Part shown: positions 4,981-42,815 of the stretch, one piece after another | Position numbering within the stretch: position 1 is the stretch's first letter | Layout: every line of letters begins with the position of its first letter | Origin: Patescibacteria group bacterium | GTDB lineage: Bacteria > Patescibacteriota > Minisyncoccia > Phycocordibacterales > SIBU01 | Reading direction: 5' to 3' | DNA length: 64,000 nt | Assembly: GCA_038063715.1 (NCBI GenBank) | Contig: JBBTUO010000007.1 | Location: 1,540 to 65,539 of the forward strand | Notes under the pieces: model-generated | The model's input: the letters and a program-made list of their open reading frames with translations, nothing else | Databases searched by the model: none | What the model was told of the DNA's origin: nothing | Made by a program: the position numbers and the translations under genes

Positions 4981-4998
4981 AACCCTATTTTCTCTGTC

Positions 4999-5034
4999 TA
5001 CATAAATATTACGCTATAGCGTAATATTTATGTA
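4999..5034. repeat. Perfect 36-bp palindrome TACATAAATATTACGCTA|TAGCGTAATATTTATGTA (family core TACGCTATAGCGTA)
   Basis: Read directly from the sequence. Same core as the palindromes at 6964-7001 and 7589-7626. Confidence 0.85.
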
Positions 5035-5122
5035 TCTCCCTTTTTAAAAGGGCTGAATTGCAAGAAAATAAAATTAACATTCCGTCCATCAATCACATTG
5101 GTTAGTCTTTTCTTTCAAAACT

Positions 5123-6551: not shown

Positions 6552-6827
6552 ATGAAATTTATAAAAGAATACGCTTGCTTTGTTCTCATGGTGTTTCTAG
6601 CGGGTCGGTCATTGTATAAAGCGTTGTTACCTTCTGCTTTGATAAATCAGGAAGGTTTAGGTAGTCAGGCACTCTGGTTTGCAACCGCTCTCGCATGCTC
6701 CCTCACCGCGATATTCTGCGCCTTCACAAGTGCGCTATACAAAGTTATCGATGATGAAAAGAAAGAGCGCGCGCAAAATGCAGGAAACAATGCACCCTCG
6801 CGTCAGAAATCGAACATGCGCGAATAA
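6552..6827 (+). CDS. Hypothetical small membrane protein
   Basis: 91-aa ORF with two hydrophobic segments, immediately after the HTH gene. A terminator-like hairpin follows (~6843-6875). Confidence 0.3.
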   Translation: MKFIKEYACFVLMVFLAGRSLYKALLPSALINQEGLGSQALWFATALACSLTAIFCAFTSALYKVIDDEKKERAQNAGNNAPSRQKSNMRE

Positions 6828-6963
6828 GGTAAAAGTAAAACTAACAATAGGCGACCAGCAATGGCCGCCTTTTCTTTTATGCCGACAGAATGTACATCCC
6901 CCACTACACTCTATCTCCTGTTCCCTGTTCCTACCCCCTATCCACAGACCTCTATTTTCCTAC

Positions 6964-7001
6964 ATACATAAATCTTACGCTATAGCGTATAATTTATGTA
7001 T
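6964..7001. repeat. Imperfect ~38-bp palindrome ACATAAATCTTACGCTA|TAGCGTATAATTTATGT, overlapping the start codon of the downstream gene
   Basis: Core TACGCTATAGCGTATAATTT is identical to the downstream copy at 7601-7620. The ATG at 7000 lies in the right arm. Confidence 0.8.
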
Positions 7002-7566
7002 GGGAAAAATTGAAGAAGAATATCGCAAAAGACGCCGTAATGCCGAGATTCAGAAAGTTGTTCTTGGAACAATTGCGGTAGCGGGTGGTTTGAGCGTTTC
7101 CCTGCTGGCGCCGAATGCTCTGCAAGCATTAAAGATGCTTGGATTCAAAACAACTCGGCGAATTGAGTCAATAAAAGAAGCAAAAACGCGTCTGATCAGA
7201 GCTGGATTAATTTCTTACAACGGCAATGTTCTTTCACTGACGGCGAAAGGTGAAACAAAATTGTCCCTGCTGGAGCTAAATGAATATAAAATAAAAAAAC
7301 CGAAACGGTGGGACAAAAAATGGCGAGTTTTAATTTTTGATATCAGTGAGAGCAGAAAAACTTTGCGGGATAAGGTCAGAAGGACATTAATCGCCGTAGG
7401 TTTTATTCGACTTCAAGATAGCGTCTGGGTTTATCCCTATGACTGCGAAGATTTAATTGCTCTACTAAAGACTGATTTCAAAATCGGCAAGGAGTTGTTG
7501 TATATGATTGTCGACAGCATAGAAAACGACGAAATAATCAAAGAACAATTCGGCAGTATAAGTTAA
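7000..7566 (+). CDS. wHTH-like + Cas2/VapD-like domain protein (paralog 1), not in a CRISPR context
   Basis: 188 aa. The C-terminal half (KKWRVLIFDISESRKTLRDKVRRTLIAVGFIRLQDSVWVYPYDCEDLIALLK...LLYMIVD) resembles the Cas2 motif pattern (vLvvYDvs..krR.kv.k.L...G.RvQ.SVf.c.l). The N-terminal ~100 aa is basic and helix-rich (LLAPNAL...). The 295-aa ORF-track version, with its N-terminal extension through a terminator and palindrome, is rejected. Confidence 0.55.
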   Translation: MGKIEEEYRKRRRNAEIQKVVLGTIAVAGGLSVSLLAPNALQALKMLGFKTTRRIESIKEAKTRLIRAGLISYNGNVLSLTAKGETKLSLLELNEYKIKKPKRWDKKWRVLIFDISESRKTLRDKVRRTLIAVGFIRLQDSVWVYPYDCEDLIALLKTDFKIGKELLYMIVDSIENDEIIKEQFGSIS

Positions 7567-7588
7567 TATGAAAGCATCAAAAACCAAT

Positions 7589-7626
7589 ATACAGAAATTA
7601 TACGCTATAGCGTATAATTTCTGTAT
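7589..7626. repeat. Perfect 38-bp palindrome ATACAGAAATTATACGCTA|TAGCGTATAATTTCTGTAT
   Basis: Read directly. Third member of the TACGCTATAGCGTA family, 23 bp downstream of the wHTH-Cas2-like gene. Confidence 0.85.
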
Positions 7627-7687
7627 ATAATGTGTGGATGGATGCGGGCCTAAATTAAGCAGAACGCCTCCAATACAGTTTGAACTT

Positions 7688-8383
7688 TTACAATAAGAGG
7701 AGTGAGGCGACGGCGACTGCGGCGGTTTCGGCGCGGAGGATTTGAGTGCCGAGTGATAGGATTGGAATATTTTTTTCGCGAAACATTGCGAGCTCTTGGT
7801 CGGTGAAACCACCTTCTGGGCCGATGAATATGACGAGAGATTCATGATTTAGGATTTTAGATTCATGAAAGGAGGTGCCAGAGGGATCGAATGCAACTGC
7901 TGGAGCGGGTAGATCCGATAACGCTTTTTCTAGTGAAACCGGCTCAGAAAGTGTCGGTGCGATTCCCCTACCCGACTGTTCAGAAGATTCACGGACAATT
8001 TTTCCGGCACGAATAACATTAAACTTTTTCAAAATAGTTCTTTGAGTGGTCATCGGGCAAAAATGTGAAACGCCCAGCTCAGTCCCCTTTTCCAGAATCC
8101 ACTCAAATTTATCTGGCTTGATCAGCGACTGAAACAAAAAGATTTCTGACTTCGGTGCAAACATATTCTTTCTTTTTTCGAGAATCACTAGCTCCGCTTT
8201 TAAATAAGTAAGCTCGGTAAATTGCGCGGTGTATTCAAAACCGGAATTATCAAAAAGAATAACCGAACTTCCGGTGTTAAGCCGAAGGACATGTCGCCAC
8301 TGACTGAGCAAATCCGACCCCTCGATTGTGATGTGGTGCTGATCACCAATTGTCTGTTCTATAAAAAAATTGTGAAGTCGCAT
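7688..8383 (-). CDS. rsmE: 16S rRNA (uracil1498-N3)-methyltransferase RsmE
   Basis: C-terminal motif FIGPEGGFTDQELAMFREKNIPILSLGTQILRAETAAVAVASL, typical of RsmE. The start is probably MRLHNFF at 8383 rather than the ORF-track 8446. Confidence 0.75.
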   Translation of the reverse strand: MRLHNFFIEQTIGDQHHITIEGSDLLSQWRHVLRLNTGSSVILFDNSGFEYTAQFTELTYLKAELVILEKRKNMFAPKSEIFLFQSLIKPDKFEWILEKGTELGVSHFCPMTTQRTILKKFNVIRAGKIVRESSEQSGRGIAPTLSEPVSLEKALSDLPAPAVAFDPSGTSFHESKILNHESLVIFIGPEGGFTDQELAMFREKNIPILSLGTQILRAETAAVAVASLLLL

Positions 8384-8476
8384 AATCAAGAGTATATAGT
8401 ATTTTGTATATAGTATGAAGTATTGATAAAAAGAAAAGCCCGACACAGAAGTGCGGGCCTACTAGAAAACTAAACA

Positions 8477-8944
8477 TTAGGACTCCCAACGAAGAACGGC
8501 TTGAATCCGGACACCTCGCTCATCTTCAGCCGCTTGGTCAGTTATTCCCCTCAATTCCAAGGGCATCCAGTTCTCGTCAAACTTTGGTTGCCCGTCATTG
8601 ATGAGTGTGTTGATAGTGAAGAGCAAGGTGGCCACAGCAACTTTTTGCAAAAGAGTCTTACCGGAATCTGCTGAACTCAAGAAGATTGCTGACCACGCGT
8701 TGGTGCCGTGGGTAACAATTGTGGCATCCCGATATTCCCACGCATCAAAATTCTTCCCAAACACACAAATGCGACCGAGAGTCTCGGGGGACATTAAAGC
8801 AACCGCTTGCTTCACATCCAGCATAAAGATCTGCCGAACCACATCTGATGTAATACCCTTGGATTTTCTCTTCTCGAGATAATGTTGGAGACGACGCTTG
8901 CCAACAATATTCGTAGCAAGGTCAACAATATACGATTTTTTCAT
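8477..8944 (-). CDS. Hypothetical protein
   Basis: 155-aa ORF with normal composition and no recognisable motif. Confidence 0.4.
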   Translation of the reverse strand: MKKSYIVDLATNIVGKRRLQHYLEKRKSKGITSDVVRQIFMLDVKQAVALMSPETLGRICVFGKNFDAWEYRDATIVTHGTNAWSAIFLSSADSGKTLLQKVAVATLLFTINTLINDGQPKFDENWMPLELRGITDQAAEDERGVRIQAVLRWES

Positions 8945-17849: not shown

Positions 17850-17865
17850 CATCTGCGTAGCTCCC

Positions 17866-17906
17866 TGTATACGTTTATAATACACGACCGTGTATTATAA
17901 ACGTAT
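17866..17906. repeat. Perfect inverted repeat TATACGTTTATAATACACG-ac-CGTGTATTATAAACGTATA (19-bp arms)
   Basis: Read directly. Lies between two convergent genes. Confidence 0.8.
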
Positions 17907-24295: not shown

Positions 24296-24826
24296 TAGCA
24301 AAATGTCGGGGAGGATTTCAATTTCGAGTACAGTTCGAGGCGGGAGTTCAATTTGTGACTAAGCTGTACAGTAGTACTGCGAAGGAGCAAATTGGGCTCC
24401 CAACGATGAAATGTGCCGAAATTGGAATCCGACAAAGAGAAAACCGCCTATGGGCGGTCTTTGTCGTTAGAACATGTTTACAAAATTCATCCGGTGATAA
24501 ATCCTGGGAACATGCTCTAAATTCAAATTGGCACAAAAGCGGTTTTAAGATAGGAGATCCTGTCTTGTTTACTTGATTTAGGTTTGAAAAATATAATCCG
24601 AAAGTGAGAAAAAATGAGAAAATATTTTCAAACGAAAAGCGAAACTGTCAGGGATCTCAAAATAGAGAGTAGATTCTCAAAGAACATTTATTGGGGAAGC
24701 ACATCTTCACACCAACGACTACTTCTCTATGAAATAGTATACACCCTATCAAGGACATGTAAAAGACATACCTGTGGATAACTCTATTTCTTTTTGTCCT
24801 TTATAAAAGACAGCCGTTTTGGGCCT

Positions 24827-25642
24827 CTATATAAGGCCATTGTCCGGTCGCGTTGAAATTTCTTTTTTAGTTTCTGAGTCTAATCTTTTCGCTTCCGCCC
24901 ACGCAAGCTCATAAATTTTTTTCATTGCGTCGGCAATTTCTTCGCTTTCAATAATAATCCCGAGCTTCTCTCGCCACGACGCGATCATCACTTTGTTATC
25001 GTAGATATTTATTTCTGGAGAAAAATAATATTTCTCCGATGACACAAGTGCGGTTTCTCGTTTCTCATCTTTGTCCTGTTTTTTTCGTTCTCGCCCAATA
25101 GTTGTTTCCGGAACAATTGCACGAATTGAGATATTTTTCTCCGCTCTCTGTTTGTAATACTTCGGGAAATAGTTGGGGAGTGCTTTATGCATGTCATCTA
25201 CATTTGCATAGGCCCGAATAGGCTCGGAGCTCGTCAAAGTATCTTCATATACGTATTCAAGACCATCTGTTCCCTCGTAAAATCGGATCTTTGGGCGATT
25301 TTCAAGAGAGTAGAGAACATTCAGCTCCGGCAATATTTTTTCTGACTGTTTAATAAAGCCTTCGGTCTGTGAAATTTGCCGTTTCAAATATTCTGTAACG
25401 GCCGTTGGTGGTTCAGGTGCATATTCCTGCTTTGGCTCCTTCCCAGACACGCTGGCCAACTTTTTACTAACTAAAGAGCCGAGAATATCGTAGCCGGTAG
25501 TGCGATTTATCCCTGCCTTGAGTGAAATCTTGGAAACCGTCGCCCTTCCAAGTTCGAGTAGGGCAATATAGACATCAACTTCTTTTTCGCTAAAACCAAA
25601 TGACTGAAGGTTGATTTTTAGTTGGGTGTATTTCTGTTCCAT
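24827..25642 (-). CDS. TrmB-family transcriptional regulator (paralog 3)
   Basis: N-terminal wHTH FGFSEKEVDVYIALLELGRATVSKISLKAGINRTTGYDILGSLVSKKL. The C-terminus (EEIADAMKKIYELAWAEAKRL) is shared with the remnant at 28093-28190. Confidence 0.7.
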   Translation of the reverse strand: MEQKYTQLKINLQSFGFSEKEVDVYIALLELGRATVSKISLKAGINRTTGYDILGSLVSKKLASVSGKEPKQEYAPEPPTAVTEYLKRQISQTEGFIKQSEKILPELNVLYSLENRPKIRFYEGTDGLEYVYEDTLTSSEPIRAYANVDDMHKALPNYFPKYYKQRAEKNISIRAIVPETTIGRERKKQDKDEKRETALVSSEKYYFSPEINIYDNKVMIASWREKLGIIIESEEIADAMKKIYELAWAEAKRLDSETKKEISTRPDNGLI

Positions 25643-25978
25643 GCGGTAAGCATATCAAAAATGCCTGATTGTGTCAATTATTTTCCACAAAAATACGCCT
25701 TATTGCCTAAATAGATTGATAAATATGGCTATTTCTATATTTAAAATGACGATTATATTTGACAATAAATAGAATATTGGGTATAGTTATGCAAGATAAG
25801 TTTCGGTAGCTCATTGAAATGCGCACTCAATAATTCATAGTGAAAGCACCGTTTCGATAGATGGAAGGTGGGTGTACTCTAGAGCCCACCACCCATCTAT
25901 CGAGTGAGGCAAAAAGCCGATTCTGCCAACGCAGGATTAGAAAAATCACAATTACGATGATTTTTCTTCATAGAATAG

Positions 25979-27232
25979 GTGCTCTCCGCTATGAAAAACA
26001 TCTTCCCGAACGTCCCCGCCTCCCTTCCAAGAAAAAGTGAATTGCCTCCGAACGGCACATGTCGCATGATCTGGAAGTGGAGCTACCCCGCCACAAGAAT
26101 GAGGGAAACGGTTGTAATCAAGGGAGAGGTTGTAAAAAAACTTCTTACCCTCGACCTCAACATTCCCGAATCCGGGTTTGCAACAAAAGTGAACAATGCA
26201 TCGCTCGCTGATGCAAAGAACATTTTTGTCGCAAACTACCCGTGCCCACACAAGTGTCCGGGCTGTTTCAACAACGCTGAGCTCCACAATCCAATCCTTA
26301 CCTTGGAAGAGATTTGGGGTATTGTGGACCAGGCGCTGGAACTCGGTCTCGAATCGGTAAAGTTTCTTGGGCCAGGCGAACTTCTCGCCAACCCTGAGAT
26401 CTTCACGGTTCTTGACGGGTTCCGCAGACGGAACATCGTGGTCGGCATCTTCACCAAGGGAGCAATAATGGGAAATGATGTGCTTGCATATCATTACCAT
26501 GGGATGAGTTCGGAAGAATTCACTCGCAAGCTCGTGTCATACCCGAATATGACATTCCTTGTTGGGGGCCGGTCATTCGACCCCCACTTCGAGAACCTCT
26601 TCATTCCGAGGAATGAAAGGCAGATCGATGTGAAGTTCGACTACCACGCTGCGCGCGGACTCGCTATTGAGCGACTTTGCAAATCTGGAATGAATGCTGA
26701 CCTTGAGAAACCTAGGCTGGCAATCATCTGTAGTCCAGTGACTTCCCAAAACATTGGTTGCGTGGGTGAGATATACAAATGGGGTGCCGAAAGGAACATC
26801 CCTGTGTATCTTCCACCAACGATGGTATCTGGGAAAGGCCATAAACTGGTGAAAAGTGCTTCGGACAAAAAATTCGAGGATGACTACATCAAATTGGCCG
26901 CCGATGTTTACACTTGGGCGATTGAGCGGGGAGTTATGACCCTCGAACAATTCGAACAAGAGGGGCCACATCCCTACATCGGAGTTGCACCCTGCAACCA
27001 GCTCACTCACGGCCTCTACGTTCACTACGACGGAGCGGTGTGGCGTTGCCCCGGTAACGACACACCCGACTTCGTGGTAAATGAGAACATCCGCAACACA
27101 CCTCTCGTTGAAATCTGGCGTGGTAGCAAAAACTACCGCATCAACAAATTCAACAACGGATGTGTGAAGGATGACATCTCGCTACCTCGCCGGTTTTATC
27201 GCGAGGTGAAGGACAAGGTTCAACGGCAGTAG
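25979..27232 (+). CDS. Radical SAM protein with Cys-rich C-terminal (SPASM/twitch-like) region
   Basis: Canonical CxxxCxxC (NYPCPHKCPGC). Six further Cys in the C-terminal half (CSPVTSQNIGC, APCNQ, WRCPGN, NGCVKDD). GC content is higher than flanking DNA. The start may be at 25991 (MKNIF). Confidence 0.7.
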   Translation: MLSAMKNIFPNVPASLPRKSELPPNGTCRMIWKWSYPATRMRETVVIKGEVVKKLLTLDLNIPESGFATKVNNASLADAKNIFVANYPCPHKCPGCFNNAELHNPILTLEEIWGIVDQALELGLESVKFLGPGELLANPEIFTVLDGFRRRNIVVGIFTKGAIMGNDVLAYHYHGMSSEEFTRKLVSYPNMTFLVGGRSFDPHFENLFIPRNERQIDVKFDYHAARGLAIERLCKSGMNADLEKPRLAIICSPVTSQNIGCVGEIYKWGAERNIPVYLPPTMVSGKGHKLVKSASDKKFEDDYIKLAADVYTWAIERGVMTLEQFEQEGPHPYIGVAPCNQLTHGLYVHYDGAVWRCPGNDTPDFVVNENIRNTPLVEIWRGSKNYRINKFNNGCVKDDISLPRRFYREVKDKVQRQ

Positions 27233-27270
27233 TTCTGCCACACGCTCTGGAGAATAGCGTCCAACTCCAA

Positions 27271-27300
27271 CCTCGCAAGCAATTGCGAGGTTTTTCTTTT
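27271..27300 (+). terminator. Rho-independent terminator after the radical SAM gene
   Basis: CCTCGCAA-gcaa-TTGCGAGG followed by TTTTTCTTTT. Confidence 0.7.
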
Positions 27301-27303
27301 GCC

Positions 27304-27388
27304 CAGTTTTGCCCGCGCTACTCCGTGGTCGCAACAACTGAGGCCGTCGCACATACCTCTTTATCCATGGTTCGACGCAACTTGATCA
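27304..27388 (+). repeat. ~85-bp double-hairpin repeat, copy A (diverged)
   Basis: TTTTGCCCGCGCTACTCCGTGGTCGCAACAACTGAGGCCGTCGCAC...CGACGCAACTTGA. Aligns with copies at 29215-29300, 29366-29410, 34950-35010 and 42725-42815 (reverse orientation). Confidence 0.7.
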
Positions 27389-27396
27389 GAACCATT

Positions 27397-27416
27397 TACT
27401 TTAGTTAACTAAAGTA
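27397..27416. repeat. Perfect palindrome TACTTTAGTTAACTAAAGTA (copy 2 of 3)
   Basis: Read directly. Confidence 0.8.
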
Positions 27417-27564
27417 TCCGTAAAGAAGTTTTATTCAACATTAAAAACTAAAAGTATTCTTGTTACGAACTTGATAATTTTTTTAAAAAATTAATTTTCA
27501 AAATCAAAATAGAAAAAGAAGAGCCCGTCGCTTGTGTGCGACGGGCTTTGTGAAAGTTCACGGA

Positions 27565-28017
27565 TCAACTTGCCGGAGGGGAGACCGGAACAACGAGCGG
27601 AACCGGGAGACAAGCGCCCAGGAAATTGTCACTGGGATTAAGCAGGCGGCGAAGAACGAAACCGTGAGAGATAATTGCGCCATCGGCACAGGGCACTGTG
27701 CCCGCCTGGCCATTGGGACACAAACTTTCGATGATATCCATGGCGCCACCCTCGTTCAGCGCCTTGGCCGAGGCTAACCAAACTACACCGTTGGTGGTGA
27801 CCACGACCAAAAGGCCAGCGTCTACGTTCCAGCAGCCGAGGGCGCTGGAAGAGATTTGGCCACCATCGGTAAGGCGAGCGCCAGCCATTTTCATGACGGG
27901 CAAGCCGGTGACGTTGACAAAACCGAGAGGTGCCAAAAGGTCCTCTCCTAACAAGGTGCTGTGTGTGCTCATAAGTGCGTGGGGGGGGGTAACAGGTTTA
28001 TCTGATTGTCCGAGCAA
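27565..28017 (-). CDS. Hypothetical Gly/Ala/Val-rich protein with several Cys, in a GC-rich insert (coding strand uncertain)
   Basis: 150-aa ORF, probably starting at the internal MSTHS. Convergent with the radical SAM gene. A competing 113-aa ORF on the plus strand (27698..28039). Composition is unlike the surrounding genome. Confidence 0.3.
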   Translation of the reverse strand: MLGQSDKPVTPPHALMSTHSTLLGEDLLAPLGFVNVTGLPVMKMAGARLTDGGQISSSALGCWNVDAGLLVVVTTNGVVWLASAKALNEGGAMDIIESLCPNGQAGTVPCADGAIISHGFVLRRLLNPSDNFLGACLPVPLVVPVSPPAS

Positions 28018-28092
28018 TTCGAACTATTTTCGAGTCTAACATATTTTAAACTCACTGTCAAGTAAAACTATGGAATAGGGCTTTCCTAGATA

Positions 28093-28190
28093 GAATTTAT
28101 CTTGAGCCCTTGTCCAACCTTTTCGCCTCCGTCCACGCCAATTCGTAAATTTTTTTCATCGCGTCAGCGATCCACTAGCTCTCAATTTGG
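28093..28190 (-). pseudogene. 3' remnant of a TrmB-family regulator gene
   Basis: The minus strand encodes ...IADAMKKIYELAWTEAKRLDKGSR*, preceded by an in-frame stop. It is nearly identical at the DNA level to the 3' end of the gene at 24827-25642 (TTTTCGCCTCCGTCCACGCCAATTCGTAAATTTTTTTCATCGCGTC). Confidence 0.55.
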
Positions 28191-28257
28191 AAAAATGTCG
28201 CAATCTATTGGAAATTTTGTAGCGTGTCATTCCACACACATTTGATATACTTTTTTA

Positions 28258-29130
28258 ATGAATACAAAAAACTATTTCGTAGCTCCGACAATTGCATTGC
28301 TTATATCCCTCTCTTTCTGGTTCACCGCCAATACCGCCAACGCCACCGTCGGTGGACCAACTTTCGTCCACTCTTTTTCCTACAATCCTGCCGATGAATC
28401 TGTGTACTACATTATGAACTCGCAGAACGGACGGGGTTGCCCACCCGAATTACTCAAACTCTCTTTGGCTTCAAATACTTCTCAAGTAGTGTACTCGTGC
28501 GACGAGGGCGAGAGTTTGATCCAAAACACCAACTACGATTTTGCACCCGTGAACGCCAAAATCAGCGACATCACGGAGGGATACAAACGTCTCATCCCAA
28601 TACATTTAAAAAATAATAATATTTCTGTCAGCGTTGATTTCCATGGGCTCGAGAATATTTCTCCGGAGGTCAGCGAGATAAAGAATGCGAAGTTTACCGT
28701 AAATATCTCTCAAGACAACAAAAAGCTCGCACCCATCCCCATCGTAGGCTGTAACAACGACCAACCCTTCACCCTTGCCGGCTATGCCATACCTGGATTT
28801 GAGAAAAAAATAATTATCCTCCTATCTACAAAAGGTGATTGCTGGGAAGGTGGCTATATTCGCGAAAGTCTCCATGTTGTCGGAGGAATAAGCGACTTGG
28901 ATAAAAATTACACCACCAACTACTACAAAGAAGCGTCCGCGCTGGTACCGAACGAAGGCACCTTAGTGGTCTCAGCCTCGGATGAATCTTCACCAAATCC
29001 TATTGCAACGAACACTCATGATACAGAGACGCCTCGTGAAAACGCCTCCGGTAACAGTATTTTATTTACTCTTGCGATTATTGTCTCTTTGATAATTGGC
29101 GGTGTGATCGGAAAGCGATACCTAAAATAA
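28258..29130 (+). CDS. Hypothetical secreted protein with N-terminal signal peptide and C-terminal TM anchor
   Basis: 290 aa. Hydrophobic N-terminus (VAPTIALLISLSFWFTANTANA). C-terminal ILFTLAIIVSLIIGGVIGKRYLK. Asn/Ser-rich. Confidence 0.5.
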   Translation: MNTKNYFVAPTIALLISLSFWFTANTANATVGGPTFVHSFSYNPADESVYYIMNSQNGRGCPPELLKLSLASNTSQVVYSCDEGESLIQNTNYDFAPVNAKISDITEGYKRLIPIHLKNNNISVSVDFHGLENISPEVSEIKNAKFTVNISQDNKKLAPIPIVGCNNDQPFTLAGYAIPGFEKKIIILLSTKGDCWEGGYIRESLHVVGGISDLDKNYTTNYYKEASALVPNEGTLVVSASDESSPNPIATNTHDTETPRENASGNSILFTLAIIVSLIIGGVIGKRYLK

Positions 29131-29152
29131 ATTTCACTGGTATTTTAACCCA

Positions 29153-29182
29153 CCAGCTACTTTAGTTAACTAAAGTAGCTGG
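29153..29182. repeat. Perfect 30-bp palindrome CCAGCTACTTTAGTTAACTAAAGTAGCTGG (copy 3 of 3)
   Basis: Read directly. Begins 23 bp after the stop of the upstream gene. Confidence 0.85.
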
Positions 29183-29214
29183 GGAATGAGTTTGTATTTA
29201 TTTTTTCCCGACTT

Positions 29215-29300
29215 TCCCAATTTTGCCCACGGTACTCCGTGGTTGCAACAATTGCGGACGTCGCACCCCTCTGTTTCCGCAGCGCGACGCAAACTTGAGA
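29215..29300 (+). repeat. ~85-bp double-hairpin repeat, copy B (best-preserved)
   Basis: CCCAATTTTGCCCACGGTACTCCGTGGTTGCAACAATTGCGGACGTCGCACCCCTCTGTTTCCGCAGCGCGACGCAAACTTGAGAG. Hairpin 1 is CCACGG-tact-CCGTGG. Hairpin 2 is GACGTCGC...GCGCGACG. Confidence 0.8.
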
Positions 29301-29365
29301 GAGCCCTGAGCAACTTAGGAAACAAGAAGCACCCCTTCGAGTATCACGAAGCGTGTACCCTTGTG

Positions 29366-29410
29366 GTGCAATTTTGCCCACGGTACCCCGTGGTTGCCAC
29401 AATTGATCCC
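29366..29410 (+). repeat. Partial copy (hairpin-1 half) of the ~85-bp repeat, copy B'
   Basis: GCAATTTTGCCCACGGTACCCCGTGGTTGCCACAATTGATCCC. Confidence 0.7.
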
Positions 29411-29530
29411 AGTTTTGTTTGCGAGCTTTGCCGTCATGCGACGACAGCTCGCCGATAGGAATCGGGCGGTTGTGAGTATCTACAAAACCTGAGGAGGCGA
29501 GTAATCTCGACGTGAACTAATTCGCACTAA

Positions 29531-30325
29531 CTACTTAATGTCTATTAGGACGGGGCAATGATCCGAACCCATGACTTCGGGGAGGATTTCAGCGGATTTG
29601 AGGCGGGGAAGGAGAGCGGGAGAAATCAGGACGTAGTCGATACGCCAGCCAACGTTGCGAGCGCGGGCGTTGGCAAAATGCGACCACCAGGTGTAGTGGC
29701 CATTGCCTTTTTTGAATTGACGAAAGGTGTCGATAAATCCGGCGTCAATAAATGCCTGAAAACCGGCCCGTTCTTCTTTGGTAAACCCCTTCAAACCTTC
29801 GTTTTCCTTTGGCCGAGCCAAATCATCCGGCGTGTGAGCGACATTTAAGTCGCCGCAGAAAATGACAGGCTTTTTCTTTTCCAAAAATTTACAATAGGCC
29901 AAAAATACCGGGTCCCATTGCTTGTGGCGAAGGGGGATTCGGCTTAAATCATCTTTCGCGTTCGGAGTATAAACCGTAACAACATAAAAATCTTTATACT
30001 CGGCGGCGATCACTCGGCCTTCGGTCAGTGGATCACCGTATTTGTCCGCGCCAAGTTTACATTTTTTGATAATCGCCTCAGGAAAACCATTTATAACTGA
30101 AAGCGGTTTTTCTTTGGTAAAAATCGCCGTTCCGGAATAACCTTTTTTCTCGGCGGAGTTCCAGTATTCAGTATATTCGGCCAAATCCACCTCCGACTGG
30201 TGCTCCTGCGCCTTTGTTTCCTGCAAACACAAAATATCCGGCTGATATTTTTCGATAAACGGCACAAAAAGCCCTTTTTTGTGCACCGCGCGAATGCCGT
30301 TGACGTTCCATGAGATGAGTTTCAT
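29531..30325 (-). CDS. xth: Exodeoxyribonuclease III (AP endonuclease, Xth family)
   Basis: MKLISWNVNGIRA...LCLQETK...DLNVAHT...WWSHFANARARNVGWRIDYVL...GSDHCPV are the EEP-family catalytic motifs. Confidence 0.9.
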   Translation of the reverse strand: MKLISWNVNGIRAVHKKGLFVPFIEKYQPDILCLQETKAQEHQSEVDLAEYTEYWNSAEKKGYSGTAIFTKEKPLSVINGFPEAIIKKCKLGADKYGDPLTEGRVIAAEYKDFYVVTVYTPNAKDDLSRIPLRHKQWDPVFLAYCKFLEKKKPVIFCGDLNVAHTPDDLARPKENEGLKGFTKEERAGFQAFIDAGFIDTFRQFKKGNGHYTWWSHFANARARNVGWRIDYVLISPALLPRLKSAEILPEVMGSDHCPVLIDIK

Positions 30326-30428
30326 GGGGAAAGTATAACAGAAGACATTGGACAGTAGTAGTTAGACATTAAAAAGAAGAAATGAAAAACCCGAGGCGAA
30401 CCTCGGGTCTGGAGAGAGATAGAGTCGA

Positions 30429-30731
30429 TTAGTGATCCGCGTAAGACGGCTGCGGCCGGCGCAATCTCTTAACGGGTTTCCAAGACTGACGCGAAACACA
30501 AAAACCAGCGCTCTTAATCAACTCCTCGATCAAGGGCCCATCCGTCTGGTGCCTGTAAAGCACAGTGAACGCGCCCGTCGAAGACACTTCGAAATCGCCA
30601 CCGGAAAACCGCTTTACCGAACCCGAAACGTGACCCAGAGCTACATCGAGAAGCTTGATATCTGGCGTGGCAGGTGGATTAAGGATGTCGCGATCGGTTG
30701 CCTTTCTGGGAAGAACCTGAAACTCGTTCAT
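30429..30731 (-). CDS. Hypothetical small protein (GC-rich segment; strand choice uncertain)
   Basis: 100-aa ORF, followed on the minus strand by a hairpin plus T-run terminator (plus coordinates ~30380-30410). A competing plus-strand ORF sits at 30432..30758. Confidence 0.25.
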   Translation of the reverse strand: MNEFQVLPRKATDRDILNPPATPDIKLLDVALGHVSGSVKRFSGGDFEVSSTGAFTVLYRHQTDGPLIEELIKSAGFCVSRQSWKPVKRLRRPQPSYADH

Positions 30732-30911
30732 AGTGTTGATGGATTGATTTTTTGCTGAAGATTGTTCTGGGCAGAAAACGTCGTGTCCTCTGCTTTCCGA
30801 ACATAACTATACAGGATTTAAGAGATTTAGCAAGTCTAAAAGGTAAGAAGCCCCCGAAAAGCCTTAAAATAAGGCTTTTCGGGGGCTTAGCGTGTATATC
30901 GTATAATATGC

Positions 30912-30940
30912 TTGACAAATAGCGTGATATATGATAAGAT
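30912..30940 (+). promoter_or_regulatory. Sigma-70-like promoter (TTGACA, 17-nt spacer, TAAGAT)
   Basis: TTGACA at 30912-30917 and TAAGAT at 30935-30940, 39 bp upstream of the ATG at 30979. Confidence 0.5.
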
Positions 30941-30978
30941 AGAAGAGTAAAGATTAGAAGACCTAAACATCCAAATTT

Positions 30979-31296
30979 ATGACACAATTACTTTCAACAT
31001 TAATAGCCGCGGCCCTCGGTTCAGTCCTCGTGGTCAACGGCGTGATGATCAACACTGACGACATCATCGCTCAAGCAAAAGCTTCAGTGAACGGCGTCAA
31101 TGTCCACCAGCTCGCAACGGTTATTGAATTGTATTATTTGGACCATGATTCTTATCCGACTGTTTCCGGCGGAGAGGCGCTCGTCAACGAGCTCGCGACC
31201 GAAGGATACATTCAGAGTCGTCCGCTTGATGCAAACTCATTCAACTACGAATCAAAACTTAGTGGCCAAGATTATTCTTTGACACTAGCGCAGTAA
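30979..31296 (+). CDS. Pilin/pseudopilin-like small protein (GspG-like motif), atypical N-terminus
   Basis: Hydrophobic N-terminal helix, then ELYYLDHDSYPTVSGGEALVNEL, which resembles the GspG/PulG-type motif (YxLDNGRYPTTEQGLxAL). The canonical G|FTLIE prepilin cleavage motif is missing. Confidence 0.4.
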   Translation: MTQLLSTLIAAALGSVLVVNGVMINTDDIIAQAKASVNGVNVHQLATVIELYYLDHDSYPTVSGGEALVNELATEGYIQSRPLDANSFNYESKLSGQDYSLTLAQ

Positions 31297-31302
31297 ACAA
31301 AA

Positions 31303-31346
31303 CAAAAAAGCCCCGGCCGACTTTCGTCGGCCGGGGCTTTTTTTTG
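31303..31346. terminator. Bidirectional terminator
   Basis: AAAAAAG-CCCCGGCCGAC-tttc-GTCGGCCGGGGC-TTTTTTTT. Confidence 0.75.
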
Positions 31347-31461
31347 AATTCGTGAAAAGAAAATGCCCCGTTCCGATGTTTGCCCGTGCCGGCCCCAGGT
31401 CATCGGGGCGGTACGGGGCATCAGAACGGGGCAGAGTGCTTTTCAAAACGAAGAGACGAGG

Positions 31462-32217
31462 TCAGACCGTCGCGAGCGGCACAGTCTCGGCTGGAACCGA
31501 CGCTTGTGGCACTTCTTGTGGGTGATCTTTGACATACTTCATGTTCGCTCGGTCGAAATACGGATTCCAGACCCCCTCATGCACCTGAAGTTTCTCGCAG
31601 AGATTGATGATCGAGCGAAAGCGATCATCCAACTCGTCGATTCCCGACTTGTCATCGGGACAATCGCGCTGTTTGCAAACCAGCAGGAAGGTATTGAAGT
31701 CCAGAAACTTCCTGCAGGCGTCGCAAAACTGCTCATCGGTGACCCTGGCGATCATGAAGATGCCGTCGGGCAAGGTCGAGATGTCCACCCCTGGAAACAG
31801 GAGTCTCTTGAAGAATACGCTGTTCTTAATCAGCAAGGCGTCGAGCTCTTGCAGAGTTTTGACGAACGGCTGGGTGCTGGTCTCGTAACCGTAGATAGCG
31901 GCAAGAGCCACGGCGCTCAAACCCAAACCCACGACGATGCCCGTCCAGACAGAGGAGAAACCAATGCTCGCCAGCAGGAAAAAAAGAGCGAGCAGGGACA
32001 ACACGAGCATCAACAGCGCCTGCTGTGATCTATAGTAGTCTGACCGCAGATATTCGGCTGGGTCCCACACGGCACCGTTATACTGCGATCGCCAACCCCT
32101 CATCAAGATAGAGTTTGGGAGGAGGCAGTTGATGATGATTGCTCTCAAATGAACCTCCGAGAGGAAGTTCCTGGTTTGAACGAGTTGCATATACTGTCGA
32201 TGTGCTTTCTCCGTCAA
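31462..32217 (-). CDS. Hypothetical membrane protein (GC-rich gene)
   Basis: 251 aa with several hydrophobic segments (LLMLVLSLLALFFLLASIGF, WTGIVVGLGLSAVALAAIYGY). About 50% or more GC against an AT-rich background. Confidence 0.45.
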   Translation of the reverse strand: MTEKAHRQYMQLVQTRNFLSEVHLRAIIINCLLPNSILMRGWRSQYNGAVWDPAEYLRSDYYRSQQALLMLVLSLLALFFLLASIGFSSVWTGIVVGLGLSAVALAAIYGYETSTQPFVKTLQELDALLIKNSVFFKRLLFPGVDISTLPDGIFMIARVTDEQFCDACRKFLDFNTFLLVCKQRDCPDDKSGIDELDDRFRSIINLCEKLQVHEGVWNPYFDRANMKYVKDHPQEVPQASVPAETVPLATV

Positions 32218-32393
32218 TGTGTTTCTTGGACTGAATGGGGGTTTGGGCCCATCGAACCGTTTTTGGGACGGCCGACGTTTTCATGGTTCCAAGTCAGAAA
32301 TAATGACGGATTATTTCTGATGTAGACACTATAACAAATTCCGGCTTATGTCAATTAAGCGTACGTGTTTTTGCAATAAACTCTCCAAGCTAT

Positions 32394-32439
32394 CCATATA
32401 CAGATATTACATGCGGTCGTGTATAATAGCTGTATATGG
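32394..32439. repeat. Palindromic element CCATATACAG...CATGCGGTCG...CTGTATATGG overlapping the start codon of the downstream gene
   Basis: Perfect 10-bp outer arms (CCATATACAG / CTGTATATGG). The inner core shares CATGCGGTCG with the downstream element at 33089-33126. The ATG at 32436 lies inside the right arm. Confidence 0.75.
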
Positions 32440-33002
32440 GAAATCTTGAAAAAGATTCGCGAAGACGAACGCGCAAAGGAAATATTGAGCGGGCCGTTCT
32501 CAACACCGTTGCGGCGGCGGGAGTGTTGAGTGTTGCACTGCTTGCCCCCAACGCACTCAAAATGCTTGGGGTAAAAAACTGGGCCGGATGGAGCCGACAA
32601 AAAGAGGGGGTGGCGGAAGCGAGAAAGCGACTGATAAAAAATGGTTTGCTGGAATATAAAAATAATTCCCTGATGGTAACCGTAAAAGGGGAAGCGAAGT
32701 TGCGACATCTTGAACTGCTGAATTTCAGATATCCAAAACCGAAGCGATGGGACAAAAAGTGGCGCCTGCTAATTTTTGATATTGCTGAGAGTAAACGAAT
32801 ATTGAGAGATAAAGTCAGATTAACTTTGCAAGCAATTGGTTTTGTAAAACTGCAACACAGTGTTTGGGCATATCCCTATAATTGCGAAGACCTGATTGCG
32901 CTTTTGAAAACCGATTTTCGTGTCGGCACTGATCTCTTGTACATCATTGCCGACAACGTTGAAAACGACGCGGTGTTGAAAAAATATTTTGGGTTGCAGT
33001 AA
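32436..33002 (+). CDS. wHTH-like + Cas2/VapD-like domain protein (paralog 2)
   Basis: Clear paralog of 7000-7566 (LLAPNAL, KRWDKKWRLLIFDIAESKRILRDKVRLTLQAIGFVKLQHSVWAYPYNCEDLIALLKTDF). Confidence 0.55.
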   Translation: MGNLEKDSRRRTRKGNIERAVLNTVAAAGVLSVALLAPNALKMLGVKNWAGWSRQKEGVAEARKRLIKNGLLEYKNNSLMVTVKGEAKLRHLELLNFRYPKPKRWDKKWRLLIFDIAESKRILRDKVRLTLQAIGFVKLQHSVWAYPYNCEDLIALLKTDFRVGTDLLYIIADNVENDAVLKKYFGLQ

Positions 33003-33088
33003 AAGGCACGTTCCAAGGTGTCGCGCGAACGGACAGGTAGAAACCGAGTAGAAGCTTGGATCTCTCTAAAAAACACAGAACTCCCCGT

Positions 33089-33126
33089 CTACAGACATTG
33101 CATGCGGTCGCATGTAATGTCTGTAG
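33089..33126. repeat. 38-bp palindrome CTACAGACATTGCATGCG-gt-CGCATGTAATGTCTGTAG (1 mismatch)
   Basis: Read directly. Followed by ATGGG as in the upstream copy. Lies 87 bp downstream of paralog 2. Confidence 0.8.
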
Positions 33127-33256
33127 ATGGGTGGGGGGGGTTGTAGCAGGGATAAGAGGTGTAGTAGGGACACTAGGCGTAACAAGGTAGAACGATTGTA
33201 GACAACTAGCGGGTAACAAAGACGGGGCGTTTTATTTTTTATTGTGGAAATCTCTT

Positions 33257-34174
33257 TTACCGTTTGCGATTATGGAAATTCTTATGAATCTCCCGCAGGC
33301 GGCTATCGGTAATATGCGTGTAAATCTGAGTGGTATTGATACTGGCGTGGCCGAGTAGCATTTGGACCGAGCGGATATCGGCGCCGTTAGAAAGAAGATC
33401 GGTGGCAAAGCAGTGGCGAATTACGTGTGGCGTCACTTTTTTGGAAATACCGGCCACAATCGCATAGTGCTTCACAAGCCTTTCTACTGATCGGCGAGTC
33501 AATCGCAAATCTTTTTTCGATGCCGGATCAACGCTTACCTGCACAAAAAGAGCGTCATCGACATCAGTGCGCTTGGCAACATACTGCTTGAGCGCCTGAC
33601 GAGCCGAGTCCGAAAGAAAGACCACCCGCACTTTTTCGCCCTTGCCTCGCACCGAAAATTCATCAGAACGCAGATCGAGGTCACGCGATAGGGAACAGAG
33701 CTCGGATACGCGGAGACCGGTTGAAAACAAAAGCTCCATGATAGCCCGATCACGAAGTGATTTTATGTCATCACCTTTCGGTGCATCCATCAATCTTCGC
33801 AGTTCATTTCCCGAAATGAGATCGAGTGCACGCTCAGAAGTTTTTGCCAGCTCAATATGTTCTGGCGAAATGGTTTTCACATCACGCTTAGCCAAATATT
33901 TCAAAAAAGCTCGCAAGGCGATTAGATAATAATTTTGGGTTTTCTTCTTGAGCGTGTCGCCGGTCGGCTTGTTGTTGCCGGTCGATTGGCGGTTGAGCCA
34001 GAGGCGATATTCGCGCAAAAGTTCATCCGTAATCTTGGCCGGATCGGTAATTTTGGCAAAAACTAGAAACCGCTTCAAGTAGTGGTCGTAATTTTCCACC
34101 GTTTTTACGCTTCGACCACGTTCGATTTCAATATATTCCAAAAATTCTTGTTTGAGAATCTTGAGGTCTTTCAT
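33257..34174 (-). CDS. Tyrosine recombinase, XerC/XerD / phage-integrase family
   Basis: N-terminal SAM-like domain (EFLEYIEIERGRSVKTVENYDHYLKRF). C-terminal catalytic residues in context (HVIRHCFATDLL, LLGHASINTTQIYTH). Confidence 0.85.
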   Translation of the reverse strand: MKDLKILKQEFLEYIEIERGRSVKTVENYDHYLKRFLVFAKITDPAKITDELLREYRLWLNRQSTGNNKPTGDTLKKKTQNYYLIALRAFLKYLAKRDVKTISPEHIELAKTSERALDLISGNELRRLMDAPKGDDIKSLRDRAIMELLFSTGLRVSELCSLSRDLDLRSDEFSVRGKGEKVRVVFLSDSARQALKQYVAKRTDVDDALFVQVSVDPASKKDLRLTRRSVERLVKHYAIVAGISKKVTPHVIRHCFATDLLSNGADIRSVQMLLGHASINTTQIYTHITDSRLREIHKNFHNRKR

Positions 34175-34341
34175 TCATTCTATTATATCAAATGTCGCAC
34201 AATATTTTATCCAAAATGAGCATGGCGAGGCAGGAAGAGAAGGAGTATTGACATAAAACTACTTATATGCTAAGCTTCTTTTCGGCAATAAACAGAATGG
34301 CTCTTCGAAATAAGTAGGTTGCGTCGCCTCATAAGCGAGCA

Positions 34342-34890
34342 ATGATCCTGCCTTTTCAGGAACCCGCCACTACAGACAACACCGCCATGAGCACACAAAC
34401 CGCCGCAAAAACAGCCTCCCAGACCAAAAACCAGACGAAAGCCGCGCTCCTCGAGCAGATCGCGAGGCTGACCGCCGACCTCGGGACCGCGCAGAAAACC
34501 GTCACGGACACCAACACGCGGGTCCGCGAACTCGAGGCCTCGAATCGGGAACAGTATGCCGAGAATCGCCGGCTGACGGATGATCTCAAGCTCCAGACCA
34601 AAAAGTTCGAGGATCAGGCGAAACGCCACGCTGCCTGTCACGAACGGACGGCCATTCAACTCGCCGCGGGCCGCGCCGAGCAAGAGGGCGCCGCGAACGC
34701 GTTCAGTCGCTCGCTCGAAGTCGTCATCGCGAACCTGGGCAAGAAGGCGTCGTCGCCCAAGAGTAGCCTGTTCGGCGAGATGCCGGCGGGACTCGCACTC
34801 CTGATGAGCATGGCGGAAAGCGGCCCTTCGGCTGAAGACGCCTTCGCCGACCTGCGCCGGCATCTCGAGACCGCCGGTGGCGGCCACTAA
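34342..34890 (+). CDS. Hypothetical coiled-coil protein (GC-rich gene)
   Basis: 182-aa ORF with K/E/Q/A-rich heptad-like composition. Followed by a strong terminator. The antisense ORF 34270..34887 has R-rich nonsense composition and is rejected. The start may be the internal Met at ~34387. Confidence 0.4.
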   Translation: MILPFQEPATTDNTAMSTQTAAKTASQTKNQTKAALLEQIARLTADLGTAQKTVTDTNTRVRELEASNREQYAENRRLTDDLKLQTKKFEDQAKRHAACHERTAIQLAAGRAEQEGAANAFSRSLEVVIANLGKKASSPKSSLFGEMPAGLALLMSMAESGPSAEDAFADLRRHLETAGGGH

Positions 34891-34916
34891 GCCGACGACA
34901 ACCTACAAACCTCACA

Positions 34917-34950
34917 GCCGCTCGACGCACGTCGAGCGGCTTTTTCTTCT
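34917..34950 (+). terminator. Rho-independent terminator
   Basis: GCCGCTCGACG-cac-GTCGAGCGGC followed by TTTTTCTTCT. Confidence 0.7.
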
Positions 34951-35010
34951 CAATTTTTCTCACGGTACCCCGTGACTGAAAAATTGAGGACATCGCGCTT
35001 ACCGACTTCA
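34950..35010 (+). repeat. ~85-bp double-hairpin repeat, copy C (diverged)
   Basis: CAATTTTTCTCACGGTACCCCGTGACTGAAAAATTGAGGACATCGCGC...GCGATGCAAACT. Confidence 0.6.
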
Positions 35011-35115
35011 TACCTGGTGCGATGCAAACTAATTAGCTTTTAATCCTTTTAATTTTGTCGAAAGAAAAATGCCAGTTCCGGATTGCTCCGCGCTGGCATT
35101 TGAGAAGGAAATAGG

Positions 35116-35481
35116 TTACAGATCAAACAAAAGCTCGATCTCGGCTACCACACCTCTCTTTGGACATTTATAGCTACATCCTGCCTCCACAAGCTTTAGC
35201 GAAATTTCAGCACTGGTAGAAGAAGCGAGCATAGGACCAGTAAAACCAGCTGCCCGAAACTCATGGACCAGAGGAATCGTTGATACATCACCTGGCATAA
35301 ATCCGTCCATCACGATCAGCGCAAGGCCCGAGTTAGCGTGGAACATTATTCTTGCCTGTTCAATGGAAAACGCGTGAAGAAGGGCCACACGATCATCCAA
35401 AGCCCGACAATAGCCACTCTGAACAACCCGGTCATCCTCCACAATCAAAACTTTTTTCTTGTTCATAAGCTTGTGTTTCAA
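35116..35481 (-). CDS. Response regulator receiver-domain protein (stand-alone CheY-like)
   Basis: KKVLIVEDDRVVQ...LIVMDGFMPG is the REC-domain pattern. No output domain. A terminator on the minus strand lies at ~35060-35099. Confidence 0.65.
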   Translation of the reverse strand: MKHKLMNKKKVLIVEDDRVVQSGYCRALDDRVALLHAFSIEQARIMFHANSGLALIVMDGFMPGDVSTIPLVHEFRAAGFTGPMLASSTSAEISLKLVEAGCSYKCPKRGVVAEIELLFDL

Positions 35482-35608
35482 TGATTTGCTGGCCCTATTA
35501 AGCCAAAAAACCCTAATTTATGCAAGTTTCAGGCCAAGATAGGCGAAAACCCAATTTATATAGAAAAGGCTTGCAAAATAGAGTGAGGTGTGATATCATT
35601 AACCCACA

Positions 35609-35878
35609 ATGCTTACAAAAACCAAGAAACAGCGAGCTATCAAGGTAGTTGCCATTCATGACAAAGATACAGGCTCATCAGAGGTTCAAATTGCTTTATT
35701 GACCAAGAAAATCGAAGCTCTAGCATCCCATCTCAAGAAAAACGCCAAGGACAAGCACTCACGCCGAGGTCTTCTCTCAATGGTTGCTGATCGCCAAACG
35801 CACATGAAGTATTTGGAGAACAAAAGCTCAAAGCGATACAATTCGGTTGTGAAAAAGCTTGAACTCAAGAAAGTTTAG
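35609..35878 (+). CDS. rpsO: 30S ribosomal protein S15
   Basis: 89 aa, GSSEVQIALLTKKIEALASHLKKNAKDKHSRRGLLSMVADRQTHMKYL, the canonical S15. Confidence 0.9.
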   Translation: MLTKTKKQRAIKVVAIHDKDTGSSEVQIALLTKKIEALASHLKKNAKDKHSRRGLLSMVADRQTHMKYLENKSSKRYNSVVKKLELKKV

Positions 35879-42709: not shown

Positions 42710-42724
42710 TGCAGGTTGCTGAAT

Positions 42725-42815
42725 CAAAATGGGTTTACGTCGCGCTGCGGCAACAGAGGAGGCGCGACGTCCTCAATTGTTGCAACCGCGGAGTACCGTG
42801 GGCAAAATTGGGAAC
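42725..42815 (-). repeat. ~85-bp double-hairpin repeat, copy D (reverse orientation)
   Basis: The reverse complement is GTTCCCAATTTTGCCCACGGTACTCCGCGGTTGCAACAATTGAGGACGTCGCGCCTCCTCTGTTGCCGCAGCGCGACGTAAACCC, about 90% identical to copy B. Confidence 0.8.

Follow-up and report, generated by a model that had tools for sequence, protein, structure and literature searches.

A resident xer gene between accessory cassettes: probable mosaic origin of a GC-rich segment in a groundwater Paceibacteria genome

A tyrosine recombinase gene found next to genes of atypical composition raises the question of whether it is the integrase of an acquired element or a fixed part of the chromosome. The question is posed here by positions 31360-35110 of a 64-kb stretch of DNA, hereafter the window, from a groundwater Paceibacteria/Parcubacteria genome of the Candidate Phyla Radiation (CPR). 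The window has a GC content of 0.443 (44.3%) and matches contig CAYHIP010000002.1 of the metagenome-assembled genome (MAG) GCA_964356825.1 (Hainich groundwater). An earlier note on this DNA had taken the segment for the remnant of an integrated mobile element or genomic island. We favor, with a probability of roughly 0.8, a different structure: a mosaic in which a core xer gene is flanked by independently inserted accessory cassettes, and not one mobile element. The accessory DNA is not considered a single unit because a backbone xer in its native orientation sits in its middle, dividing it into two blocks or more. What remains of the former view is that the genes other than the recombinase are accessory and that two of them are compositional outliers.

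Position of xer in related genomes

Two sets of related loci were compared with the window. The first is composed of 80 species-representative genome loci anchored on polynucleotide phosphorylase (PNPase; 48-78% identical) and searched by tblastn with all genes of this region as queries. The second contains 80 metagenome loci anchored on Xer (62-75% identical). In the PNPase-anchored set, xer was found in 51 loci, the exonuclease III gene (ExoIII) in 44, rpsO in 69 and the NYN gene in 72. Their order is always ExoIII(-), xer(-), rpsO(+), NYN(+), PNPase(+), usually contiguous, with modal gaps of 7-50 bp between ExoIII and xer and of 60-130 bp between xer and rpsO. In the Xer-anchored set rpsO adjoins xer in 64/80 loci and ExoIII does so in 54/80, both with a median gap of 126 bp. 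The window has these genes at 29531-30325 (ExoIII, minus strand; Pfam Exo_endo_phos, E = 3e-33), 33257-34174 (xer, minus strand) and 35609-35878 (rpsO, plus strand, followed by NYN and PNPase). ExoIII, directly downstream of xer in the relatives, is the left backbone anchor and rpsO, the divergent neighbor of xer in the relatives, is the right one. The distances between them are strongly expanded: the ExoIII-xer gap measures 2931 bp versus a median of 126-167 bp in the relatives, and the xer-rpsO gap 1434 bp versus a median of ~110-126 bp. Comparison of gap lengths defines an insertion block 1 of 2.9 kb (30326-33256) at the ExoIII-xer junction and an insertion block 2 of 1.4 kb (34175-35608) that extends from xer and its conserved upstream 14-mer (see below) to the rpsO promoter.

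Because the ExoIII-xer-rpsO order is conserved in the related loci, the recombinase gene is assigned as an ancestral, fixed xer. From this gene order its product is predicted to be the resident housekeeping Xer of the lineage, positionally fixed in the clade, and no island integrase; its role is presumably chromosome-dimer resolution. The presence/absence comparison suggested in the earlier note gave a divided answer. The recombinase is found in conserved synteny, which that note had named as the sign of an ancestral segment, and the accessory genes are absent from the locus. Among the latter, the genes for a protein with two transmembrane helices (2-TM), a coiled-coil protein, a response-regulator-like protein, a pilin-like protein and a 100-aa polypeptide have no homologue in any of the 160 loci. 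Homologues of the PaaX-like gene occur in two of the 160, elsewhere in the locus and never at these junctions.

The same distribution could arise if the accessory genes were ancestral to the clade and every sampled relative had lost them. CPR bacteria have streamlined genomes that readily lose genes, background GC is seen in the PaaX-like, pilin-like and response-regulator-like genes, and one relative (L020) carries a response regulator and a kinase at its xer-rpsO junction. Such a history would need the genes to have disappeared in parallel from more than 100 lineages, all with a contiguous ExoIII-xer-rpsO arrangement. It also has to accommodate two orphans whose GC content at third codon positions (GC3) is 4-6 standard deviations above the genome mean, and the 7-50 bp spacing of xer and ExoIII is operon-like and simpler as the ancestral state. 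We regard differential loss as quite improbable.

Insertions are no more frequent at the junctions adjacent to xer than elsewhere in the backbone: loci with more than 500 bp at the junction amount to 34% and 12% next to xer versus 32% at NYN-PNPase. Insertions in the relatives consist of ordinary genes with host-like GC. The closest relative (L006) packs the 10-50 kb region of the window into 22 kb, and the extra DNA of the window, from 11 to 36 kb, is spread over a large number of junctions. This is an ordinary variable neighborhood, subject to ordinary genome flux.

The earlier identification of a tyrosine recombinase at 33257-34174 is correct. The protein combines the catalytic domain PF00589 (Phage_integrase, E = 1e-44) with the N-terminal SAM-like domain PF02899, and its catalytic region shares the motifs GLRVSEL, GKG-K, PHV-RH, LLGH and QIYTH with E. 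coli XerD (1a0p) in the alignment. The tyrosine-recombinase fold, the R-K-H-R-H-Y residues and the SAM-like domain are all present. The score of 235.9 bits with NF040815 (NCBIfam XerA-type / integron integrase) is above the cutoff of 220. Those with the XerD (TIGR02225, 247.7 bits; cutoff 329.6) and XerC (TIGR02224, 235.6 bits; cutoff 335.15) models are below threshold. An integron integrase was rejected based on TIGR02249 (134.3 bits, cutoff 265, with the match split into two stretches) and NF011946 (77.9 bits, cutoff 435). An integron cassette array was likewise rejected: the hairpin repeats of the region are scattered over 27-43 kb, occur to the left and to the right of xer and on either strand, and in one case follow a core gene (a test that did not extend to the attC R'/R'' core motifs). 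The genes around xer have mixed orientation.

Position and sequence of the xer locus may differ in their history. Xer and PNPase identities are weakly correlated (r = 0.41, all pairs), and Xer and ExoIII are poorly congruent with PNPase, NYN and rpsO. The ExoIII and Xer of the window are closest to those of locus L076, and its rpsO, NYN, PNPase and ComM-like products to those of L006. This suggests repeated allelic replacement at a locus, ExoIII-xer, whose position is conserved. Close relatives differ widely in their alleles here: ExoIII identity to the window protein falls at either ~40% or 60-88% across loci L006-L085.

Base composition and marks of integration

The segment was originally singled out by a rise of GC content from ~31.36 to ~35.0 kb. 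Its average is indeed 0.500 versus 0.443 for the window, the highest of any 3.75-kb stretch of the window and within the top 0.4% of stretches of the same length. The rise is not continuous. The GC excess is confined to two patches, 31344-32290 (0.536) and 34301-34950 (0.620), and the middle (32291-34300), which encodes the PaaX_M/Cas2-like protein and the recombinase, has a GC of 0.448, equal to background. The GC3 of the other 54 genes of the window is 0.436 +/- 0.060. On this scale the z-score is +4.3 for the 2-TM orphan, +5.7 for the coiled-coil orphan, +1.2 for xer and ~0 for the PaaX-like gene. The five genes of highest GC3 in the window are all found within 25.9-34.9 kb.

These data bear on the proposal of a single element of ~3.7 kb (~31.35-35.1 kb) that would carry its own tyrosine integrase together with a cargo of the 2-TM, PaaX-like and coiled-coil genes, and be bounded by att-like repeats or terminators. 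The record GC of the segment speaks for it, as do the additional matches of the recombinase to phage integrase families. Against it, the GC of xer and that of the PaaX-like gene are background values and the composition shows two peaks in place of one block. The proposal is largely refuted by synteny, as more than 100 relatives without the cargo have xer in the same position and orientation and with the same neighbors.

The search for traces of integration points the same way. The earlier note had called for a check for att sites at ~31.35 and ~35.0 kb. Exact direct repeats at five pairs of candidate boundaries are at chance level, the longest being 8 nt. A 14-nt pair at 31228/35021 was rejected as an att site since it is within chance expectation and its right copy lies inside an ~85-nt dispersed repeat. 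There is no tRNA target in the region (the nearest tRNA is 8.5 kb away), and no second recombinase, transposase, relaxase, phage gene, excisionase or other mobility gene was found there. A search of the window against Rfam retrieved only tRNAs. The one signal near the proposed edges is a gapped direct similarity between 31342-31393 and 35047-35097 (~75% identity over ~52 nt, four gaps), which beats all 500 shuffles and, set against random zone pairs, ranks in the top 1%. Both sequences correspond to the 3' stem and U-tract of minus-strand terminators, those of the 2-TM gene and of the receiver-domain gene. They are taken as related terminator modules and not as att sites, since the backbone xer would lie inside any element that they bounded. 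Overall, a single integrase-bearing element is given very little credence.

Bidirectional terminators had been described on both sides of the segment. The left one exists (31304-31343, a perfect 18-bp stem). On the right there are two convergent terminators, 34916-34941 on the plus strand, which serves the coiled-coil gene, and ~35064-35100 on the minus strand, a hairpin with U-tract behind the receiver-domain gene. A copy of the ~85-nt repeat lies between them.

An assembly or binning artefact, with GC-rich stretches of another organism mis-assembled into the contig, would fit the metagenomic source and the abrupt change of GC at gene boundaries. The junctions are spanned at 99.6-100% identity by three independent contigs that stem from different samples and assemblers (L002, 32770-34517; L003, 32999-34437; L005, 33984-36345), and identical proteins are encoded on a 92-kb contig of a second MAG. 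The chance of an artefact is close to nil.

Accessory genes, palindromes and repeats around xer

The two GC-rich genes reported previously are genuine, with a GC3 of 0.69 for the 2-TM gene and 0.78 for the coiled-coil gene. Their coding strands were set by codon-position composition (GC3 > GC1 > GC2), which assigns 31462-32217 to the minus and 34342-34890 to the plus strand. Note that the public annotation of the MAG calls a 221-aa open reading frame (ORF) on the plus strand at 31363-32028, while the real gene is the 251-aa minus-strand ORF 31462-32217; distant homologues confirm this minus-strand 2-TM protein. The gene is followed by a long GC-rich terminator hairpin with U-tract (31364-31433, minus strand; folding energy -58.7 kcal/mol, z = -6.9). 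The protein has a short N-terminal region, two transmembrane helices and a helical C-terminal domain of ~130 aa. Its only near match is itself. A HMMER search of 1.84 billion representatives retrieved five distant relatives (25-32% identity, 225-318 aa) that share a conserved N-terminal motif, the two transmembrane helices and the helical C-terminal domain. Two of the homologues are found on informative contigs, both with CPR-type gene contexts, and the other contigs are too short to be placed. The homologue in the CPR genome of L087 has host-like GC. The family is a very rare one, and its placed members are so far all on CPR-type contigs. A structure modeled by AlphaFold from the alignment of the six sequences (predicted local distance difference test score, pLDDT, of 76.6) gave no significant PDB match. 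Assignment as a SLATT 2-TM effector was rejected (PF18181, 13.5 bits versus a cutoff of 26.3; NF033634, 14 bits versus 41; no PADLOC match). The idea that the 2-TM family and PaaX_M genes are functionally linked was also rejected as unsupported: the two genes are neighbors here and in L087-89, but not in L086, L170 and L171. In L087-L089 (~6600-8800) a three-gene insertion coding for a PaaX_M-like protein, a destabilase/SLT-like protein and the 2-TM homologue splits the rpsL-rpsG / fusA-tuf operon.

The coiled-coil gene (34342-34890, plus strand, 182 aa, GC 0.63) is the strongest compositional outlier of the window. Its product matches only itself among 5.8 billion proteins and has no homologue in phage, plasmid and IMG/VR collections, where a 34-aa coiled-coil match in IMG/VR was the only hit. 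Pfam matches are limited to sub-threshold coiled-coil families. Because both GC-rich orphans are such strong compositional outliers, they were probably acquired by horizontal transfer, and fairly recently. Another CPR bacterium of higher GC is a plausible donor of the 2-TM gene, because the homologues of the latter are found in CPR contexts, one of them with host-like GC.

The gene at 32436-33002 (plus strand, background GC) encodes a winged helix-turn-helix (wHTH) protein with a PaaX_M/Cas2-like domain. It is the second paralogue in the window, as the earlier note had recognized together with its palindromes, and its product is 58% identical to the paralogue encoded at 7000-7566. The match to PF20803 (65.8 bits) is well above the gathering threshold of 24 bits. 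The protein fails the PaaX equivalog model (TIGR02277, 29.4 bits versus a cutoff of 264.55) and is borderline for CRISPR Cas2 (TIGR01573, 24.7 versus 24.5 bits, with ~42 residues covered). No CRISPR array is present among the repeat families of the window (cas1 was not scanned for). On these grounds the gene is neither PaaX nor CRISPR Cas2.

A palindrome of 47 bp (32394-32440) covers the -10 box and the start codon of the PaaX-like gene and is its presumed operator/promoter. A second cognate copy (33085-33131), 79% identical to the first and itself an inverted repeat of 91% complementarity, lies 3' of the gene between two convergent gene ends. The same layout is found for both paralogues of the window: a palindrome of ~46 bp with a TATAAT box over the start codon, and a second copy just downstream. 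The palindrome sequence differs between the paralogues and is thus paralogue-specific. In locus L071 the gene between palindromes recurs with a different palindrome (915-956, 1528-1573). In L087, a distant CPR genome, the downstream palindrome (7016-7059) shares the core ACGCTATAGCGT with the window. A family of near-perfect palindromes of ~40-47 bp was identified at 4993-5035, 6959-7001, 7584-7626, 17864-17906, 32394-32440 and 33085-33131, and the copies away from PaaX_M promoters lie between convergent gene ends. The palindromes are most simply read as cognate operators, and the one in the promoter suggests autoregulation of the PaaX_M gene. G-rich tracts starting with ATGG/ATGT follow directly after the downstream palindromes (33132-33256 and 7627-7690); they could be small ORFs or RNAs expressed from the second -10 box of the palindrome. 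The earlier suggestion that the Cas2-like gene is island cargo is not supported: it appears to be a member of a multi-copy CPR family that has its own palindrome pair wherever found, and not integrase-borne cargo. These PaaX_M/Cas2-like regulators, each bracketed by a long paralogue-specific palindrome, deserve a separate study.

Three further genes complete the blocks. In block 1, a 100-aa ORF (30429-30731, minus strand, GC3 0.58, no Pfam match) has its own promoter-like site and a terminator at 30387-30410; its coding strand is uncertain since a 108-aa plus-strand ORF overlaps it. It is followed by a pseudopilin-like gene with a T2SSG/type IV pilin fold (30979-31296, plus strand; PF08334, E = 2.5e-5; promoter-like site at 30912-30940), whose product has no canonical prepilin leader. 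In block 2, the response-regulator-like gene, a stand-alone receiver-domain (CheY-like) gene of background GC (35116-35481, minus strand), matches PF00072 with an E value of 0.0055, below cutoff, and its translation shows the DD...D...S/T...K pattern.

An ~85-nt repeat had been placed at the right edge of the supposed island. Copy C is indeed found there (~34947-35035, plus strand) and is the most diverged one, but it does not mark an edge. The five copies in the window (27300-27392, 29214-29306, 29365-29457, 34947-35040 and, on the minus strand, 42722-42814) all directly follow an intrinsic terminator and are co-oriented with the upstream gene; the fifth (42722-42810) lies downstream of a conserved LysM/M23 gene. 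Folding of the repeat gives two hairpins with 26 consensus pairs, six of which show compensatory changes. It is absent from the loci of the relatives and has no Rfam match. Its role as island edge or attC site was rejected based on the copy behind a core gene and on the scattered, two-strand distribution. It is a dispersed REP-like (repetitive extragenic palindromic) element and not an island boundary.

A third lineage-specific block of 4.8 kb was noticed within 24296-29530, between the gene of the CCA-adding enzyme and ExoIII. It contains a TrmB-like gene, a weak radical-SAM/SPASM protein gene (25991-27232, GC3 0.59), a 135-aa ORF (GC3 0.62) and a gene for a membrane or secreted protein of 290 aa. 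A 29-aa fragment of the 3' end of the TrmB-like gene is duplicated at 28100-28186.

The 14-mer upstream of xer, origin of the mosaic and comparison with known systems

The 14-mer ATGTCGCACAATAT (34192-34205, plus strand) is found 20 bp upstream of the xer start and has a single copy in the window at up to two mismatches. Its core (one mismatch at most) lies beside or overlaps the xer start in ~39/51 genome loci, and its exact 10-mer core is present in 48/80 metagenome loci. The motif occurs in either orientation, with about two off-target matches in 1.4 Mb, and remains on the xer side where insertions occur. Its DNA sequence is conserved beside xer in most Paceibacteria relatives (loci L006-L169), so that the linkage is class-wide. 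It may be a recognition half-site of Xer or an operator of xer, is a testable candidate for such a site in these bacteria, and merits a study of its own. We found no literature on Xer/dif in Patescibacteria.

The motif would have a wider meaning if it served as recognition arm in an xer-dif module with a single recombinase, a dif-type site at which Xer itself integrated the adjacent DNA, as in an integrative mobile element that exploits Xer (IMEX). A cognate dif site would comprise two arms of ~11 bp and a spacer of 6-8 bp and lie at the replication terminus. A precedent is xerS-difSL, in which a conserved dif site directly precedes the recombinase gene (PMC1914069). The tight linkage of the single-copy motif to xer and its retention on the xer side of insertions are in line with this idea. 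Block 2 starts within ~40 bp of it, and in locus L008 the 14-mer forms a perfect 11-6-11 inverted repeat. Such a landing pad, if real, would explain both the foreign orphans on the two sides of xer and the allele exchange at the locus. Apart from L008, no conserved second arm was detected in the relatives (mean of 5.90/11 matches versus 5.83 in shuffled flanks), and no second or degenerate copy of the motif was found on the far side of either insertion. Insertions are not enriched at the xer junctions, and those of the relatives are ordinary genes with host-like GC. The divergent gene orientation and GC skew around xer/rpsO are more origin-like than terminus-like, and block 1 adjoins the 3' end of xer, a long way from the 14-mer. 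Both the module and the landing pad are therefore rated as very improbable.

The mosaic reading would account for the locus as follows. An old backbone, ExoIII(-), xer(-), rpsO(+), NYN and PNPase, would carry the fixed resident Xer. Small accessory cassettes would have been inserted separately at both junctions flanking xer, with more at the neighboring junction on the left (24.3-29.5 kb). Every cassette would be a self-contained monocistronic unit with promoter, ORF and terminator. Two of them (2-TM, coiled-coil) would retain a foreign codon signature of high GC, and the PaaX_M/Cas2-like gene would bring its own cognate palindrome pair. The data show that the synteny is conserved, that the relatives lack the accessory genes at this locus, that the composition is as described and that att repeats are lacking. 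We infer that these events were gains and not losses, that insertion was piecemeal through illegitimate or homology-assisted recombination and not catalyzed by Xer, and that the palindromes are operators.

Several points weigh against the mosaic. The insertion mechanism is one that we infer. The nearest relative is distant (78% identity in PNPase, 66-75% in Xer), which leaves the insertions undatable and makes loss elsewhere formally possible for the genes of background GC. The xer allele itself could have come by homologous replacement together with neighboring DNA, because Xer/ExoIII identities do not track those of PNPase. The ~52-nt similar sequences at 31342-31393 and 35047-35097 are, in addition, near the boundaries that had first been drawn for the segment.

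The mosaic reading bears on the annotation of mobile elements and islands in MAGs. In CPR/Patescibacteria an Xer gene beside GC-atypical orphans is easily mistaken for an island integrase. Here comparative synteny identifies it as the core xer, with accessory genes building up piece by piece at numerous junctions of the backbone.

Integrase-associated islands have in common with the locus a tyrosine recombinase beside foreign orphans and terminator-rich boundaries. Here, unlike in such islands, the recombinase belongs to the backbone, the accessory DNA is split into blocks, and att repeats, a tRNA target and genes for excision or transfer are lacking. IMEX are exemplified by CTXphi and by the dif modules of Acinetobacter. 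They likewise present foreign DNA devoid of its own integrase beside a conserved Xer-linked motif, but the locus described here has no flanking dif/pseudo-dif pair and no second copy of the motif, and insertions are not enriched at its xer junctions. The PaaX-like regulator shares with the PaaX family the central domain PF20803, a winged-helix-like N-terminal part and a palindromic site at its own promoter. It is shorter (188 aa versus ~300 aa), has no paa genes nearby and, unlike PaaX, is bracketed by two copies of a ~46-bp palindrome. The ~85-nt repeat resembles REP elements and bacterial interspersed mosaic elements (BIME) in being intergenic, species-specific and dispersed, with a post-terminator two-hairpin form that shows compensatory changes. 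It differs from them in that no RAYT/TnpA-REP (REP-associated tyrosine transposase) gene was seen in the window and in its number of five copies per 64 kb.

The recombinase itself compares best with chromosomal Xer proteins (XerC/XerD, archaeal-type XerA, the single-recombinase systems XerS/XerH), with some differences. It is below the equivalog cutoffs of both XerC and XerD. The motif beside it is a single asymmetric 14-mer in either orientation, without the conserved 11-6-11 site of Xer dif, and the local strand and skew pattern does not resemble a terminus. The sequence relationships of the recombinase are incongruent with those of neighboring core genes. Its two-domain layout, SAM-like plus catalytic, and its XerD-aligned motifs are those of the chromosomal Xer proteins, it passes the XerA-type cutoff, and its chromosomal position is likewise fixed clade-wide. 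The short conserved DNA motif just upstream of the recombinase gene resembles the layout of difSL-xerS.

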